DNA of 38,284 nt, taken from the NCBI GenBank assembly GCA_043799675.1, contig JAZDNN010000028.1, positions 1 through 38,284 on the forward strand. The letters are read 5' to 3'. The DNA comes from Candidatus Aenigmatarchaeota archaeon (lineage in GTDB: Archaea; Aenigmatarchaeota; Aenigmatarchaeia; Aenigmatarchaeales; JACQIB01). The notes under the pieces were generated by a model. It did not search any database and was not told the origin of the DNA. It worked only from the letters and a program-made list of their open reading frames with translations. The first letter of the stretch is position 1. Each line of letters opens with the position of its first letter. The position numbers were made by a program, and so were the translations under genes. Below are positions 18,959 through 25,587 of the stretch, piece after piece.

Positions 18959-19909
18959 TCATTCCAGCACATCGACGCTGTCCAGTATGCCGTCCGAGTC
19001 CGCATCGATGCCTTCGACCACCTTTGCCAGAATTTTCGGGTCCTTCCTGTTGCCTGCGCATAAATCATCAAACTTTGTGAGCAAGGCGAGGACGGCGGCC
19101 TTGGTGCCTGCGCTCCTCCTGCCTGCAAGAACGAGCACCTCTTTGGTCCTGTCGAACGGATTGCGGGTCTTGACGACAATCCCGTGATTTTCCTCGCTGT
19201 AGCTCCTGTGCGAAACATCCGAGTAAATGCTGGAGAACTTGAACGCGCCGTGCTCGACCTGCTTCATGCGGATGGGCAGCTTCTCGTTCAGGCGGGCCAT
19301 TATCATGTTCACGGCCGGTCCTCCAACGACTATCAGGTTACGTTTGAGGTCGCTTTCCCTGATTTCGGTGTCCAGTCGAACGCACTGCTCGGGAATGTAA
19401 TTGAGGAAGCTTCCGAGGAAAAGACCAAGCTCCGCCGCCTCGGTGCCGTCCTTGGCCCGCACCTTGGTGGGGCCGTGCGGCTCGGGGCTTCCCATGATTA
19501 TCAGGGCGTTCAGCTTCCCGTCAATCACGAACGGCTCAAGGAAGCGTTTGTGCTCGCTTTTCAGGGACTGCAGTTTTGCCGATGGTTGGAGGGGTTTGAG
19601 TAGGACGGCAAGGGCGGAGGCGTCGGCAGAGTAGATTTTGGCCATTGCACCCTGCCGGCCTTCGTTGCGGAGCACCCTGATCAGGCCAGCTTTTTCGAGG
19701 TTGCGGATGTGGTAATAGACCTTCTGTTCATGCACCTTCAGCTGCCGGGCCAGGTTCTTGGGATAGTCCGGCTTTTCTGTCAATGCTTGGAGTATTTTCC
19801 AAGCTAGTGGGCTGAGTGCGGTCGCCATTTGTCGGGGTTGCACGAGCTTCGCTGGTGCACTGACAGTCTTGCCGTTTTTCTGTTCAAATATATAGACCAT
19901 GTATACCAT
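18959..19909 (-). CDS. ArsR-like HTH regulator fused to a C-terminal alpha/beta domain
   Basis: PKNLARQLKVHEQKVYYHIRNLEKAGLI HTH; NLIVVGGPAVN and LVLAG...GTKAA motifs as in S-layer-like C-terminal domains; divergent from the glm operon; start 19900-19915 uncertain. Confidence 0.85.
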   Translation of the reverse strand: MVYMVYIFEQKNGKTVSAPAKLVQPRQMATALSPLAWKILQALTEKPDYPKNLARQLKVHEQKVYYHIRNLEKAGLIRVLRNEGRQGAMAKIYSADASALAVLLKPLQPSAKLQSLKSEHKRFLEPFVIDGKLNALIIMGSPEPHGPTKVRAKDGTEAAELGLFLGSFLNYIPEQCVRLDTEIRESDLKRNLIVVGGPAVNMIMARLNEKLPIRMKQVEHGAFKFSSIYSDVSHRSYSEENHGIVVKTRNPFDRTKEVLVLAGRRSAGTKAAVLALLTKFDDLCAGNRKDPKILAKVVEGIDADSDGILDSVDVLE

Positions 19910-19927
19910 TAACAACTAAATTTTACT

Positions 19928-19997: not shown

Positions 19998-21089
19998 ATG
20001 GAACTGGATTTAACAAAACTGTTGGATGGGCTTGAGATCAGGACGCCAGCCGGTAAAGGGCGGCTGACTGTCATAAATAAAGGCGGGAGATTTATCGGTG
20101 TTTCCTATGTTTATAGAAGAAATATGGATAGGGTGAACAGAACCAGCAGTTTGGTGCTTCGAAAAAACATTGTCCTTAACACACAGAACGTTTACAGGGT
20201 CGCCCTGCTCGTTTCCGAGGGAAGTCATTTACGACCTAACAAAGTTGCGAAAAACAGTTACTTCAAATTCACAAATACGGATAAAGCGATGATGCATGAA
20301 GCTTTACGATTTTTTGAATATCTAATCAAGGATGGAAATATAAAGTTTGAGCTGAAGTGCCCACCGAAAATGTCCAAACAGCAAGCAGTATGCGCGTGGG
20401 CAAGCTGCCTGAGCGGGAGCGCTTACACAATCAGTCGCAGCAGCAGAACGGGCACTGCTTCTTGCGGTGCCTATGTCAATAAAGTCTTCTTGACGCATAT
20501 AATAGATAGGATTGCAGAAGCCACCATTATGCACATCAAAAATGATAAAAAATTGTTAAGGTCTTGGTTCGCGGGCCGGATAGACGGGGACGGATCGATA
20601 CATCCTACCTATCATAGAATAGATATCGCTTATCATAAAGTCGATGAAGCAGTATTAATGAGGACAGAAAAGACACTTCTTCGCAGTATGGGAGTGAAGT
20701 TTGTCAAAGACAGGTTGTTAAACGGCAAAAACATTGTCGTCCTGCAGATATGCGGTTTAGATAACATGATAAAGCTGCTTGACCCAAGAACGGGCTTGAA
20801 AAACAAGGTAAGAATCTTTTGTCTTATAAAACGGACCAAGTTTTATATCGATTTAAATCAACGTTTCAGAGAATCTTTACCCGTTCGGTGTTCAAATATA
20901 ACGCAACAGAAGAATTGGACCAGATATCTGAACGGAAGCAGGAGAATGCCGCTTTCTGTTTACGAGGGTACGTTCGGAACGGCATGCGTACACAGCATAA
21001 AAGACATGAGATGCGGTAATAAAATCATTGCAGACAAAGACGTTATACGAGGCATTTTGGACGTGAAACGTCTCACGGGAGGTGAATGA
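19998..21089 (+). CDS. Free-standing double-motif LAGLIDADG homing-endonuclease-like protein
   Basis: Motif 1 VALLVSEGS followed by FKFTNTD; motif 2 WFAGRIDGDGSI; visibly AT-richer than neighbours; no intein splice motifs. Confidence 0.8.
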   Translation: MELDLTKLLDGLEIRTPAGKGRLTVINKGGRFIGVSYVYRRNMDRVNRTSSLVLRKNIVLNTQNVYRVALLVSEGSHLRPNKVAKNSYFKFTNTDKAMMHEALRFFEYLIKDGNIKFELKCPPKMSKQQAVCAWASCLSGSAYTISRSSRTGTASCGAYVNKVFLTHIIDRIAEATIMHIKNDKKLLRSWFAGRIDGDGSIHPTYHRIDIAYHKVDEAVLMRTEKTLLRSMGVKFVKDRLLNGKNIVVLQICGLDNMIKLLDPRTGLKNKVRIFCLIKRTKFYIDLNQRFRESLPVRCSNITQQKNWTRYLNGSRRMPLSVYEGTFGTACVHSIKDMRCGNKIIADKDVIRGILDVKRLTGGE

Positions 21090-21090
21090 G

Positions 21091-22894
21091 TTGTGCGGAA
21101 TAATCGGCTATGTCGGTAGCAATTGTAATGTGGGCGAACTGCTGTTGAATGGCCTTAGGAACTTGGAGTATCGTGGATAGCGGCCAACGGTTACGTTGGC
21201 GGCCCACATACGACTCCGTGGGGATAGCCGTTCTGGATAATCAGGGAAACATAGTCGTCAGAAAGGACGTCGGAAAGATAAGTGACGTTGATCAGAAGCT
21301 GAATTTTTCTGAGTTCCCAGGAAAGGCAGGCATGGGTCATACGCGTTGGAGTACACATGGTGCGGTCACCCAGGCTAACGCTCATCCGCACCTCAGCAAC
21401 GATAAGAGCATAGTTGTGGTCCACAACGGGATAATCGAGAACTACCAGGAACTGAGAAAGGAATTGCAGGGGAAGGGATTCGTCTTTTTGAGCCAGACGG
21501 ATACCGAGGTGATACCGAACCTGATTCAACTGGAAATGCGTGACAAGCCGTACGTTGAGGCGGTCAGAGTCGCACTGAACCGGCTGGACGGGAGCTTTGC
21601 AGTGGTCATAGCAAGAAAGGGGGAGAAGCGGCTGATAGCTGCCAGGAAAGAAAGCCCACTGGTCTTGGGGGTGGCAATCCACGGACTGTTCGTTGCATCC
21701 GACATACCCGCTTTTCTGGATCAGACCAAGAACGTGATTTATCTCCACGATAAGGACATGGTGTTGCTTGAACAGAAGCCGCAGGTGTTCAGCCTTGTTA
21801 CCGGCCTGCCCGTGGAAAGGAACATGGACAGCATAGCATGGGACATCGAGTCCGCCAAGAAGGGCTCTTTCGAGCATTTCATGCTGAAGGAGATAAGCGA
21901 ACAGGCCGAGACGGTATCAAAGGCAATAGAACAGAATAGAGAAAGCATAGAGGAAATCGCGGAGGCCATACGGAACGCGAAGGGCGTATACTTCGTGGCA
22001 TGCGGCTCCAGTTACAACGCATGCAAGGCGGCCGAGTACAAGTTCTCATGGCTCGCGAAAAAGCACATCAACGTGGCCTTGGCTTCGGAGTTCCCGAACT
22101 ACAAGGACTTCCTGCTTCCTGAAAGTCTTGTCATAGCAATCTCGCAGTCCGGTGAGACTGCGGACGTATTGTCCGCCGTCAGGGCGGCCAAGGAAAAGGG
22201 AGCGAAGGTCATCAGCATAGTCAACGTGATGGGGAGCAGCTTGGCAAGGGAGAGCGACAAGTCCGTGATGATGAATGCCGGGCCGGAGATTTGCGTGCTT
22301 GCGACCAAAAGCTATACCAGCCAGCTTGCAATTCTGACCCTCATTGCTTACGCGCTTGCAGGCAGGTATGATGAGGGAAAGGGAAAATTGAAGGAACTGA
22401 TAAGGCATATTTATTATCAGACCTCGGCCAACATGCGTGCATACGTCAAGCAGCTGGCGAACCAGCTCAGGTATACGCATCATATCTATGTCATCGGCAG
22501 GGGGATGCAATATCCCACCGCGCTTGAAGCGGCACTCAAGATCAAGGAAGTCAGCTACATCCATGCGGAAGGTTTCGCCGGCGGTGAACTCAAGCACGGG
22601 AACATAGCGCTCATCGAGCACGGGACTCCCTGCATAATTTTCATGAGCAAGGACAACGAGAAGGAAATGATGGGGAACGCGATGGAGCTGAAAGCCAGGG
22701 GAGCATACATAATCGGAATCGGTCCGAACCCGAACGAGGCGTTCGATTTCTTCATCAAGGTCAGGGAATCCGAAGAGGCTAACAGCATCTGCCAGATAAT
22801 CCCGGTGCAGCTCCTGGCCTACCAGCTTGCGGTCTTAAGAGGCTGCGACCCCGATAAACCGAGGAATCTTGCGAAGTCCGTCACGGTGAAATGA
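21091..22894 (+). CDS. glmS: Glutamine-fructose-6-phosphate transaminase, join(21091..21178,21210..22894), 590 aa
   Basis: TTG start after GGAGGTGA gives MCGIIG...LEYRG; resumes YDSVGIA, GHTRWSTHG, HNGIIEN, SQSGET, KPRNLAKSVTV after a 31-nt insertion. Confidence 0.93.
21179..21209 (+). other. Putative 31-nt BHB-type mRNA intron in glmS
   Basis: GTGG-ATA-GC-G-GCCAACG-GTTA-CGTTGGC-G-GC-CCAC-ATA; cutting after base 2 of each ATA bulge joins CGT GGA T^AC GAC TCC (RGYDS). Confidence 0.85.
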
Positions 22895-22954
22895 TATGAA
22901 TGAAAACTTCGTTTTCAAATCAGCAAACTATGCAGTGAACAGGAGTGTTTGCTG

Positions 22955-24298
22955 ATGACAGGAATATTCAGGGCATACGACATACGCGGCATCTACGGAA
23001 AGGACCTGAACGAGGAGATAGCTAAGCGGATAGGCGCGGCGTTCGGGACAATCAACAAGGGAACGATTGCGGTGGGGATGGATGCGAGGCTGAGCGGGCC
23101 ATCTCTCAAGACAAAGTTGATGGAAGGTCTCAGGTCAACCGGTTGCAACGTGGTCGATGTCGGCATGATAACCACACCGATGATGATTTTCGCCGTAGGC
23201 AACTACAAGCTGGATGGCGGAGTGATGGTCACCGCTTCCCACAATCCGAAGGATTACAACGGGTTCAAGTTATTCACCAAAGGGGCGATGCCTCTCAGTT
23301 ATGAGAGCGGGGGCCAAAAGGTGGAGGAACCGGTGAAGAGCGGGAATTTTACCAAAGGGACAGGCGGGGTCAAGAACATGGATGTCGTTGGTGATTATTC
23401 GAATTTCATACTGGGCTATGTCAATGTCAACGGAAAAGGGATGAAGATAATCGTGGATGCCGGCAACGGTTCTGCGGGAAGAATACATTGCGACGTTCTG
23501 CGGAAGGCGGGCTTTGAGGTGACGGAGCTGTTCTGCGAGCCCGACGGGAACTTTCCGAACCATGTACCTGACCCGACGGAGCCGAAGAACATCGAGATGC
23601 TCAAACAAAGAGTGAAGGAAACCGGAGCGGACATGGGAATTGCTTTTGACGGGGACGGCGACAGGCTCGGAGTGATTGACAGGCACGGGAACGAGGTCAT
23701 TCCGAACGACATCTTCATAATGTTGGCGAAGCATGCGCTCAGGATGCACGGCGGGGGGAACGTGGTGGTTGACCTCGCATGCTCGATGACCGTTTCCGAT
23801 TCCATAGGCAAAGCCGGCGGAGTGACGCACAGCTGCAAGGTCGGCCATACATACATAGCGCAGATGATGGCAGAACAGAAGGCGGTGTTCGGCGGCGAGC
23901 TGTCCGGTCATTATTTCTTCAGGGAGACGTTCAGCGGGGACGATGCGCTGTTTGCAAGCCTGAAGCTGCTGGAGTTCCTTCATCTGAACAACACCTCCTT
24001 TGAGAAAGAGAGCGCGGCAATCCCGAGATATTTCTCGCAGATAGGGGAACACCAGGCCATCCCGTATGACAGCGCCAAGGGCAATCCTATAGAGAAAATA
24101 AAGCGCATGTACAGGGAGAAGGGATGCAAAGTGGATGACAGGGACGGCGCCAAGATAATGTACAAGGACGGCTGGATGCTGTTCAGGCCCTCCAACACTT
24201 CCCCTCTCATAAGGTACGGGTTCGAGGCCAGGAGCCGGGAGACGTTCGAGGAGATGCGGAAGATGGTCGAGGAAATCAAGGGGATGATTCCAGCATGA
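22955..24298 (+). CDS. Phosphohexomutase (PMM/PGM/GlmM family)
   Basis: IFRAYDIRG, TASHNPKDYNGFK, FDGDGDR, GGELSGH, RPSNT. Confidence 0.95.
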   Translation: MTGIFRAYDIRGIYGKDLNEEIAKRIGAAFGTINKGTIAVGMDARLSGPSLKTKLMEGLRSTGCNVVDVGMITTPMMIFAVGNYKLDGGVMVTASHNPKDYNGFKLFTKGAMPLSYESGGQKVEEPVKSGNFTKGTGGVKNMDVVGDYSNFILGYVNVNGKGMKIIVDAGNGSAGRIHCDVLRKAGFEVTELFCEPDGNFPNHVPDPTEPKNIEMLKQRVKETGADMGIAFDGDGDRLGVIDRHGNEVIPNDIFIMLAKHALRMHGGGNVVVDLACSMTVSDSIGKAGGVTHSCKVGHTYIAQMMAEQKAVFGGELSGHYFFRETFSGDDALFASLKLLEFLHLNNTSFEKESAAIPRYFSQIGEHQAIPYDSAKGNPIEKIKRMYREKGCKVDDRDGAKIMYKDGWMLFRPSNTSPLIRYGFEARSRETFEEMRKMVEEIKGMIPA

Positions 24299-25587
24299 AG
24301 GCAATTGTTTTGGCCGGAGGGATAGGGAAACGGATGCAGCCCGTCCAGAAGGACAAGTGCCTGCTCAAGTTCGTCGGAAAGGAGCTGATACTTCACCAGA
24401 TTGAGGCGTTGGAGAAGGCGGGAGTGAAGGAGTTCATAATCATCTGCAACAGCATGAACGTCGACAAGGTGAAGGAGCTGGTAGGAAAAAAGGCAGAATA
24501 CGTGGTCCAGCAGGAGGCGCACGGGATGGCCGATTCCCTGCTTTCAATCAAAAACCCGCCGCGCGAGGCGCTGATAGTCGGAACCAGCGACATACTGGAT
24601 TGGGACGCTTACAGGACCGTGCTGGAAAAGAAGGAAGGGGATTCGGTGCTCATCGGATACAAGGTCAAGAGCTACTTCCCGGGCGGATACCTGATGACCG
24701 AGGGCGACAGGTTGAAGGGAATGATTGAGAAGCCCGGGGCGGGCAACGAGCCGAGTGACATGATAAACCTGGTGGTCCATTACCACCGGCATTTCGACAA
24801 GCTGATAGAGACCATGAAAATCACGGTCAGCGACAAGGACGACGTGTACGAGAAGGCGATGGATACCATGATGAAGAAGTACGATTTCAGGGTGGCGCCT
24901 TACGAGGGGCAGTGGGTCCCGCTGAAGTTCCCGTGGCATGTGCTTGATGCAGCGAAGTTCTTCATGGAGAGGGCGGAAGGAAAGATAGCTCCTTCAGCCA
25001 CCGTGTCGGACAAGGCAGTGATAACCGGCAAGGTGATAATCGAAGACAACGTCAAGATATTCGAGAACGCCGTGGTAAGAGGACCCTGCTACATCGGGAA
25101 GAACTCGGTCATCGGGAACAACACGCTAGTGTGGAGCGGCTGCCATTTCGGTGACAGGTGCGTGGTCGGCTGCGGTTCGGAGATAAAGCACAGCTATTTC
25201 GGGGACGAATCATGGTCGCACAGGAACTACATCGGGGATTCGGTGGTGGCAGACAACTGCAATTTCGGTGCAGGCACAATCACGGCCAACTGGCGGTTCG
25301 ATGCGCAGCCTATCAGCGTCAACGTAGGTGACAAGAAGATATCCACGGGCACGGACAAGTTCGGTTGCATCATGGGTGAGGGCTCCAAGACAGGCGTACA
25401 CGTTTCAATAATGCCCGGCGTGAAGATAGGACCCAACTCGATAATAGGGGCGCATGTTATGGTCCCGAAGGACGTCGGGCCGGGAAGGTTCGTGGTGCTC
25501 AAGGAAACGATAGAGGAGAAGGAGAACATGCTCAAGAGCGCCGGCAGCAAGGAAGAATTGCTGAAGAAAATGATGGGGGAGAAATGA
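24295..25587 (+). CDS. glmU: Bifunctional sugar-1-phosphate nucleotidyltransferase/acetyltransferase (archaeal GlmU-like)
   Basis: LAGGIGKRM..K N-domain, hexapeptide beta-helix, YIGDSVV..NCNFGAGTITAN. Confidence 0.88.
   Translation: MKAIVLAGGIGKRMQPVQKDKCLLKFVGKELILHQIEALEKAGVKEFIIICNSMNVDKVKELVGKKAEYVVQQEAHGMADSLLSIKNPPREALIVGTSDILDWDAYRTVLEKKEGDSVLIGYKVKSYFPGGYLMTEGDRLKGMIEKPGAGNEPSDMINLVVHYHRHFDKLIETMKITVSDKDDVYEKAMDTMMKKYDFRVAPYEGQWVPLKFPWHVLDAAKFFMERAEGKIAPSATVSDKAVITGKVIIEDNVKIFENAVVRGPCYIGKNSVIGNNTLVWSGCHFGDRCVVGCGSEIKHSYFGDESWSHRNYIGDSVVADNCNFGAGTITANWRFDAQPISVNVGDKKISTGTDKFGCIMGEGSKTGVHVSIMPGVKIGPNSIIGAHVMVPKDVGPGRFVVLKETIEEKENMLKSAGSKEELLKKMMGEK

Follow-up and report, generated by a model that had tools for sequence, protein, structure and literature searches.

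The stretch analysed here, hereafter the window, is a contig of 38,284 nucleotides (nt) from the assembly of a Candidatus Aenigmatarchaeota archaeon (contig C35 of a genome of 0.75 Mb in 45 contigs, 83% complete, 54% GC). It carries the one glmS copy of this genome, which is interrupted close to its 5′ end by 31 nt that we interpret as a candidate bulge-helix-bulge (BHB) mini-intron. The gene starts with TTG at 21091 on the forward strand, encodes MCGIIGYVGSNCNVGELLLNGLRNLEYRG and then meets a TAG stop at 21178–21180; the remainder of GlmS (YDSVGIAV... to 22894) lies in a different frame, in the open reading frame (ORF) 21149–22894. The interrupted gene is composed as follows:

21077..21085, + strand: Shine-Dalgarno-like sequence GGGAGGTGA, 5 nt 5′ of the TTG start (read from the sequence)
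21091..21178, + strand: glmS exon 1 (M-CGIIG...LEYRG, then base 1 of the Tyr codon), 22 of 28 residues as in the intact GlmS P0083
21179..21209, + strand: putative 31-nt BHB-type intron (sequence, fold, chance test and splice product)
21210..22894, + strand: glmS exon 2 (remaining bases of the Tyr codon, then DSVGIAV... up to the stop), with 84% identity to intact GlmS P0001

Both exons are intact frames, exon 1 of 29 codons with a start codon and exon 2 of 561 codons encoding the glutamine amidotransferase and two SIS domains (Pfam GATase_6/7 and 2x SIS). Excision of 21179–21209 leaves 1773 nt, or 590 codons, with zero internal stops, and the predicted product regains both the N-terminal Cys and the invariant LEYRG|YDS motif, which is present as LEYRGYDS at the equivalent site in all intact GlmS proteins of relatives; its predicted junction peptides are ...LEYRGYDSVGIAVLDNQGNIVVR and LEYRG-YDSVGIAVLDNQGNIVVR. 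With AUA at both ends of the insert, four cut registers are available, all leading to an identical product. The sequence and its ORFs thereby confirm a previous sequence-only reading of this DNA, which had the GlmS N-terminus running into the TAG and YDS resuming 31 nt on in another frame; likewise, translation of the spliced sequence upholds its claim that the archaeal cutting rule would remove exactly 21179–21209 to give a 590-residue GlmS with its N-terminal Cys.

Two public DNA sequencing runs (X1 and X2) hold relatives that are 89–95% identical to the window. Contig 11 of X2, which comes from another study and is ~89% identical, shows a gapless alignment that begins at 21611 and reaches 27 nt into the insert, where the contig ends (21183). 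As exon 1 and the insert left of 21210 match at only ~4 of 18 positions in a direct comparison, exon 1 in that place would have clipped the alignment; hence, the X2 strain has the insert. Moreover, P0015, a GlmS of 565 amino acids (aa) from a Logan assembly that is 72% identical and has an open frame, begins MPT-YDSIGIAVLD, and the PT preceding its YDS, where intact GlmS proteins have RG, equals the end of the window's intron (CCC ACA) read in the exon-2 frame. Thus, at least three assemblies contain insert-bearing alleles; these differ by up to 28% in protein sequence and all have open frames (for P0015 as seen in its translation), which argues against both an artefact and a decaying pseudogene. 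To judge from these alleles the 31 nt are real DNA, and the doubt raised in the sequence-only reading, that the DNA might lack them, is answered by X2 contig 11 and the P0015 N-terminus. The 31 listed differences of X2 contig 11 fall at third (25), first (4) and second (2) codon positions, a distribution over codons that shows purifying selection on an insert-bearing glmS allele; together with the single glmS of this genome, it speaks against the relaxed selection and intact second copy by which the same reading would have recognized a pseudogene. An origin of the insert from a repeat or a miniature inverted-repeat transposable element was rejected, there being no second genomic copy of the 31 nt and no other BLAST match better than 13–14 nt.

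The insert is rare among relatives, being seen or inferred in three sequences only. A phylum-wide search gave a glmS match in 274 of 371 genomes. It listed 150 matches, with 154 more beyond the listing, and of the 150 just two, those of this genome (G000) and of G116, begin at about residue 23–24 and away from a contig end. The comparison of glmS across relatives that the sequence-only reading had recommended thus has a divided outcome: the insert is missing from 18 of 18 glmS loci of relatives with a readable N-terminus, from 80 of 80 metagenome glmS loci and from the 150 listed matches, and it is present in X2 and inferred in P0015. The G116 locus (L151, G116:C24, ~locus position 2290) was considered as a second intron and rejected, since its frame shift at the same RG|Y site amounts to one extra G; it has a run of six or seven G (AGGGGGGTAC), and the shift is probably a sequencing error or a simple frameshift. 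Two other GlmS proteins on short contigs, P0019 (557 aa) and P0034 (554 aa), are P0015-like in their first residues and start, with MAVLD or MAVLN, eight residues past YDS; their genes may also be interrupted upstream.

Predicted structure and splicing of the insert

The elements of the predicted RNA structure, all on the + strand, are the following:

21165..21169 / 21213..21217: outer exon–exon helix GGAGU/ACUCC (RNAfold centroid)
21173..21176: central 4-bp helix, exon strand GUGG (sequence, centroid)
21177..21179: 5′ bulge AUA, predicted cut after U21178 (centroid; rule checked on tRNA introns)
21180..21203: inner helix and hairpin (GC/GC, G–G mismatch, 7-bp stem, GUUA loop; sequence, centroid)
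21204..21207: central helix, intron strand CCAC (sequence, centroid)
21208..21210: 3′ bulge AUA, predicted cut after U21209, within an internal loop and not a closed bulge (the relaxed side)

The RNAfold centroid (−28.5 kcal/mol) is exactly this BHB-like structure, and every element of the fold drawn in the sequence-only reading, namely GUGG/CCAC, the two AUA triplets, GC/GC with the 7-bp hairpin and GGAGU/ACUCC, recurs in it at the same place. The central helix consists of Watson–Crick pairs throughout, with an AUA after each strand that forms a 3-nt bulge on opposite strands; on its inner side the pairs G21180–C21203 and C21181–G21202 are followed by the G–G mismatch and the 7-bp stem (21183–89/21194–200) capped by GUUA. 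The outer helix is set behind an AUC/CG internal loop, so that the 5′ bulge is closed and the 3′ AUA lies open within an AUC/AUACG internal loop. The strict hBHBh′ arrangement, in which helices close both bulges, is therefore lacking, and the predicted motif is of the relaxed HBh′/BHL type and not canonical, just as a BHL-like outer side had been anticipated; the minimum free energy fold, too, pairs the 3′ AUA elsewhere. According to the available text of PMC5829648, cutting of the relaxed HBh′, hBH and BHL motifs is confined to (alpha-beta)2 and epsilon2 endonucleases.

Two comparisons with chance bear on this structure. The folding z-score is −3.27 against 200 shuffles, none of which folded equally well. 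When 1,000,000 random 31-mers from the same genome were placed at the insert site, a 4-bp helix with at least two inner pairs in the frame-restoring register arose in 9,129 (0.9%) with G–U pairs allowed, and in 213 (0.02%) with Watson–Crick pairs only, as observed here. Applied to two of the genome's canonical tRNA introns (C10:42136 and C20:2787), the rule of cutting after the second bulge base leaves anticodon loops of the proper 7 nt. ARAGORN reports only 17 tRNA genes, most of them with introns, and probably missed many multi-intron tRNAs; the two genes it calls SeC(tca) (C10:42136-42257 and C20:2787-2905) have, after BHB excision, the loops CUUCUAA and CUUCGGA of tRNA-Arg.

The genes for the splicing machinery are at hand. 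Two adjacent EndA genes (tRNA_int_endo, 84.5 and 56.6 bits; contig C10, ~51.4–52.5 kb) encode one protein that keeps the catalytic Tyr and His (best PDB match 3iey_A) and another without the His, as a structural subunit would be, and RtcB is present as well (524 bits). The host thus appears, by its gene content, to possess RtcB and an endonuclease of the type that processes relaxed motifs.

The rtcB gene is itself interrupted, also by 31 nt. This insert combines a 4-bp helix (UGGG/CUCA) with a 10-bp inner hairpin, an adjacent outer helix being absent, and cutting by the same rule brings back both the frame and the motif GHWG|YGFPIGGV (GHWGYGFPIGGV). The two inserts share their length, a 4-bp helix in which exon 1 pairs with the 3′ end of the intron, the strong inner hairpin and the lack of an adjacent outer helix; thus, the glmS motif fits the pattern of another insert in the same cell. 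We found no paper describing such an rtcB mini-intron in DPANN archaea. In the cbf5 gene of this genome, the part encoding the TruB_N domain runs without a break. A genome-wide loose scan for BHB motifs gave 748,618 candidates, reduced to ~157,000 by an ORF-fusion filter (control cuts shifted by 1–2 nt gave the same number) and to ~1,650 by a codon-usage coding score, again equal to the controls and with the true glmS register below threshold; as a count of mRNA introns this census was dropped. The search for similar inserts proposed in the sequence-only reading thus did not rise above its controls as a census; the frame-restoring insert in rtcB comes from a separate look at that gene.

In the splicing route that we envisage, glmS would be transcribed with the insert included; the CCAC at the intron's 3′ end would pair with the last exon-1 codons (GUGG) and expose the two AUA triplets, the two-subunit tRNA-splicing endonuclease would cut after the second base of each, and RtcB would ligate the exons into an mRNA for the 590-aa GlmS with its N-terminal Cys and LEYRGYDS. 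On the combined testimony of register, fold and comparison, we consider it quite likely that the glmS insert is such a spliced intron.

The adjoining nuclease gene and the mosaic tract

The features surrounding the interrupted gene are these:

18959..19915, − strand: helix-turn-helix (HTH)/S-layer-like gene, conserved divergent neighbour of glmS (Pfam HTH_20, S_layer_C)
19998..21089, + strand: free-standing double-motif LAGLIDADG homing-endonuclease-like gene, 363 aa (hhalign, AlphaFold, Foldseek, GC)
21091..21398, + strand: apparent recombinant (co-conversion-like) tract comprising exon 1, the intron and ~52–63 codons of exon 2, with a breakpoint between nt 21365 and 21398
22949..24298, + strand: GlmM-like phosphoglucosamine/phosphohexose mutase, intact (four PGM_PMM domains)
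24295..25587, + strand: GlmU-like nucleotidyltransferase and hexapeptide acetyltransferase, intact (Pfam NTP_transferase, Hexapep)

The ORF 19998–21089 ends 2 nt before the glmS start, and the intron lies 88 nt into glmS. In 19 loci of relatives 68–419 nt separate the HTH homologue from the glmS start, versus 1175 nt here, and this gap is filled by the ORF, whose GC is 38–47% versus 51–62% in the flanks; the genome has no second copy of it, and none precedes glmS in relatives. The wide gap, the low GC and the absence upstream of other glmS genes together indicate that the nuclease gene is an insertion.

Its product matches no Pfam family at threshold (LAGLIDADG_3 scores 14.6 bits, the cut-off being 22.5), PDB sequences searched directly and by profile returned matches at chance level only, and only four homologues turned up among 1.84 billion representatives. 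It displays the motifs ...LLVSEGSH and ...GRIDGDGS, and wherever a homologue extends over them both acidic residues are kept. With its profile, ORFs were detected in 20 further genomes of the phylum; five of these ORFs were aligned, of which three pass the LAGLIDADG_3 cut-off, and hhalign against a family with LAGLIDADG_3-positive members gave a probability of 98.7% over 293 columns with both motifs aligned. A first AlphaFold model from a 5-sequence alignment was poor (predicted local distance difference test, pLDDT, 56.5), and one from an 11-sequence alignment reached 87.7; Foldseek gave 23 PDB chains at E<=0.001, those listed being LAGLIDADG enzymes, inteins or WhiA, with the TliVMA and PI-SceI inteins, I-DmoI, WhiA and I-AniI at the top. 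With both motifs and a modelled LAGLIDADG fold, we identify the product as a putative LAGLIDADG homing-endonuclease-like protein with a presumed activity and target. Among its homologues, P0175 reads through its stop into a frame-shifted glmS start, and the records of P0174 and of P0016, a GlmS truncated at its N-terminus, both give a Logan contig of 3814 nt.

LAGLIDADG_3 matches are scattered through this genome (e.g., C16:59314-59592(-), C6:12867-13088(-), C10:53588-53842(+) and C31:8941-9465(-)). Three, each part of a very long open frame, are probably inteins; one is found a short way downstream of the rtcB gene with the intron, and several adjoin intron-rich tRNA genes and the EndA genes. 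The distant LAGLIDADG relatives of ORF 19998–21089 at L120 1390-2436(+) and L119 1270-2454(-) have a tail, …IGNMRGFVSDKYLPEK…, that resembles the C-terminal tail of the adjoining 372-aa gene (…GVSFISDVYLPEKIKK…); this nuclease cassette may carry a spare copy of the host gene's 3′ end.

The start of glmS differs in ancestry from the rest of the gene. Residues 1–55 of exon 2 are 80% identical to P0015 and 53% to P0001, and the rest of the exon is 83–97% identical to P0001 and 53–84% to P0015. Informative sites divide 14:0 before exon-2 residue 52 and 13:101 after it, with a maximum chi-square of 58.8 that 0 of 2000 permutations reached, and place the breakpoint at exon-2 residues 52–64, 155–190 nt 3′ of the intron. 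Exon 1 is closest to P0083 and P0074 (22 and 21 of 28 residues), whose N-termini group with P0015 and not with P0001. By its apparent ancestry, the exon sequence flanking the insert thus resembles a co-conversion tract, and a P0001-like gene seems to have received, in a single import, the nuclease gene together with exon 1, the intron and ~55 exon-2 codons.

In another glmS of the same family (L116, G004:C3) the open frame runs to 1021+ aa and has an intein with LAGLIDADG motifs at ...IAFAH|C...HN|SRWATHG. Its site is the GHTRW motif, ~45 codons 3′ of the intron site and close to the mosaic breakpoint of the window; in this family, homing elements seem to have a hot spot in glmS.

The locus thus combines an optional free-standing nuclease gene with the adjoining intron-bearing gene, as collaborative homing would have it, and LEYRG|YDS is the most conserved stretch of GlmS, a typical homing target. 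A cassette of the LAGLIDADG gene, exon 1, the intron and ~55 exon-2 codons would have entered by recombination in the course of double-strand-break repair. The insert would split a conserved site that the nuclease presumably cuts in intron-less alleles, and the split site would protect its carrier while the nuclease spreads both its own gene and the intron. We give this cassette or homing origin of the intron slight preference. The interpretation as a whole, that the 31 nt at 21179–21209 are a relaxed (HBh′/BHL-type) BHB intron in the sole glmS and stem from a nuclease cassette, appears to us probable.

It is conceivable that this applies more widely, with BHB mini-introns of archaeal protein genes being the immunity half of mobile LAGLIDADG cassettes and homing dragging nuclease gene, intron and flanking exon between diverged lineages as a general route of intron entry; on this generalization we are evenly divided. 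The sequence-only reading had proposed a spliced mRNA intron in a metabolic gene, possibly a control point. A BHB intron is indeed what the comparisons best support, and control of amino-sugar synthesis finds no support in them: the insert is missing from other glmS genes, adjoins an inserted nuclease gene and lies inside a recombinant tract, all of which points to a selfish mobile origin and not to a control point. The endonuclease gene and the mosaic are additions beyond that reading.

Competing explanations

Several observations weigh against a spliced intron brought in by a cassette. The minimum free energy fold (−29.0 kcal/mol, 0.5 better than the centroid) pairs GUAU 21168–71 with AUAC 21208–11 and bulges C21172, which would bury the 3′ splice site, and the 3′ cut site has neither a closed 3-nt bulge nor a pair directly outside it. 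For helix covariation a single full intron sequence is at hand, X2 contig 11 contributing 27 nt and P0015 the last two codons only. A search of public sequencing runs gave two DNA runs with small shares of the window and no RNA run, with no spliced junction or 31-nt circle seen. The alpha-like EndA (L030 1474-2040(-), G000:C10) has Ala (AHNIRANML) at the position of a Lys in 3iey_A (AHSTRKKML) that we take to be catalytic. A glmS match is found in only 22 of the 41–42 genomes of the order, and this patchiness means that loss of the gene would be tolerable in principle. As for the cassette, equal size is what places P0174 and P0016 on a shared contig, no close nuclease homologue was found for the contig of P0015, and the target assigned to the nuclease is a presumed one.

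Two of these points call for a remark. The centroid and minimum free energy conformations at the glmS insert may compete, and the Ala of EndA is puzzling given the organism's clear dependence on tRNA splicing.

The intron could be real and its link to the nuclease incidental, with reverse splicing or ordinary recombination as the intron's way in and an unrelated invasion of the intergenic region by the LAGLIDADG gene. With 21 LAGLIDADG_3 matches in a 0.75-Mb genome, 11 of them plainly over the cut-off, adjacency could be due to chance; furthermore, the rtcB intron lies ~1.3 kb from the nearest LAGLIDADG ORF, which is on the opposite strand, and the search for a nuclease homologue of the P0015 contig, which found none, points the same way. 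However, the nuclease gene stops 2 nt before the glmS start with the intron 88 nt into glmS, the tract of foreign ancestry runs from exon 1 through the intron into the first part of exon 2, and at least one (P0175) of the four homologues of this very rare family also abuts a glmS start, all of which leaves an incidental link a lesser, though appreciable, likelihood.

Alternatively, the 31-nt hairpin could be a disabling insertion made by the nuclease cassette or by repair, leaving glmS dead or dying. The broken frame, the lack of a glmS match in about half of the order's genomes, the lack of a matching RNA run and a 3′ site that departs from the canonical BHB motif are all compatible with such a pseudogene. 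Against this, both exon frames (561 and 29 codons) are intact, with a start codon and a Shine-Dalgarno-like sequence; 25 of the 31 listed differences in the insert-bearing relative are at third-codon positions; the likewise insert-bearing P0015 keeps a 565-aa open frame at 72% identity; the GlmM- and GlmU-like genes downstream are intact; and the insert sits in a precise splice register. We hence regard a pseudogene as unlikely.

Translational recoding is very improbable, whether as a bypass across the hairpin that starts from GGA-UAG, like that of phage T4 gene 60, or as a +1 frameshift at this stop. The GGA codon and UAG stop are followed by a stable hairpin within 3 nt (from 21180), and the available text of PMC7026636 describes the gene 60 take-off as a GGA codon, a UAG stop and a stem-loop, with the gap tied to a homing endonuclease. 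However, by the same account a bypass requires a landing codon matching the take-off codon, and the triplet before the resume codon UAC (21209–11) is ACA; the only GGN triplet in the exon-2 frame within the insert is GGC (21182–84). Landing there, or a +1 shift, would add 8–10 residues (…QRLRWRPT) inside the invariant RGYDS, and the step from P-site GGA to GAU is not a slippery shift.

That the 31 nt are an assembly or sequencing artefact is scarcely credible: the contig is metagenome-assembled, 31 is a common k-mer length and no public run holds half or more of the window's sampled words, but 27 nt of the insert recur in a diverged strain assembled in another study, the translated P0015 from a further assembly shows the same intron 3′ end, and the insert is not a copy of other genomic sequence.

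Parallels and implications

Neither for glmS nor for any protein-coding gene of DPANN archaea did our literature search, with most subscription journals lying outside its scope, bring up a reported BHB intron. The pre-mRNA of cbf5, which encodes a pseudouridine synthase, has a BHB intron in Crenarchaeota (Watanabe 2002; Yoshinari 2006; Yokobori 2009, the last consulted in its accessible text, PMC2738675). In the accessible portion of PMC7714728 it is the only such intron besides a 5′-UTR intron in Haloferax HVO_1309, and the accessible portion of a 2025 paper on splicing endonucleases cites only the cbf5 work for such introns. The glmS intron is like that of cbf5 in being a short protein-gene intron for the tRNA-splicing endonuclease, in the hetero-oligomeric EndA of its host and in its patchy gain and loss; it differs in lying in a metabolic enzyme gene of a DPANN host, in its relaxed 3′ side and in the adjoining nuclease gene and recombinant tract.

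Thus, an apparently functional BHB intron in a core metabolic DPANN gene would enlarge the range of substrates for the tRNA-splicing machinery as well as the number of lineages in which it acts on mRNAs. The nuclease gene and the sharp recombinant tract flanking the intron suggest how protein-gene introns arrive in Archaea, and they make the origin and spread of such introns testable at the bench; if the reading holds, the glmS locus would be a fresh example of intron entry that still bears its co-conversion scar. Annotation is also concerned, as such genes are otherwise miscalled as truncated or as pseudogenes.

A parallel from phages is the collaborative homing described for the cyanophage S-PM2, where a free-standing nuclease, F-CphI, goes with an endonuclease-less group I intron in psbA (Zeng 2009, as summarized in the accessible text of PMC6083498). 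In both systems a free-standing nuclease gene adjoins a gene whose conserved site is split by a nuclease-less intron, the intron is proposed to block self-cleavage and both are proposed to move together. Unlike its phage counterpart, the glmS intron is not self-splicing, being a 31-nt BHB intron predicted to be spliced by the host; its nuclease is of the LAGLIDADG and not the Endo VII-like kind, and its host is a cellular archaeon.

Phage T4 offers a second case in MobA and the 50-nt bypass insert of gene 60 (Bonocora 2011, as summarized in the accessible text of PMC7026636). Here too a homing endonuclease goes with a short non-coding insert in a conserved coding site, placed after GGA-UAG and starting with a hairpin. 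Gene 60 is read by ribosomal hopping between matched GGA codons, whereas the glmS insert has no landing codon and has a precise BHB register, so that its removal should occur at the RNA level.

In Archaea, there are BHB introns of rRNA genes that encode a LAGLIDADG endonuclease, I-DmoI being one example, with the nuclease gene inside a long intron. In contrast, the nuclease gene linked to glmS stands outside a 31-nt intron of a protein gene. The two cases share the conjunction of a BHB intron and a LAGLIDADG endonuclease in an archaeon, and I-DmoI chains match the modelled glmS-linked protein with a target-normalised TM-score of ~0.55–0.61.

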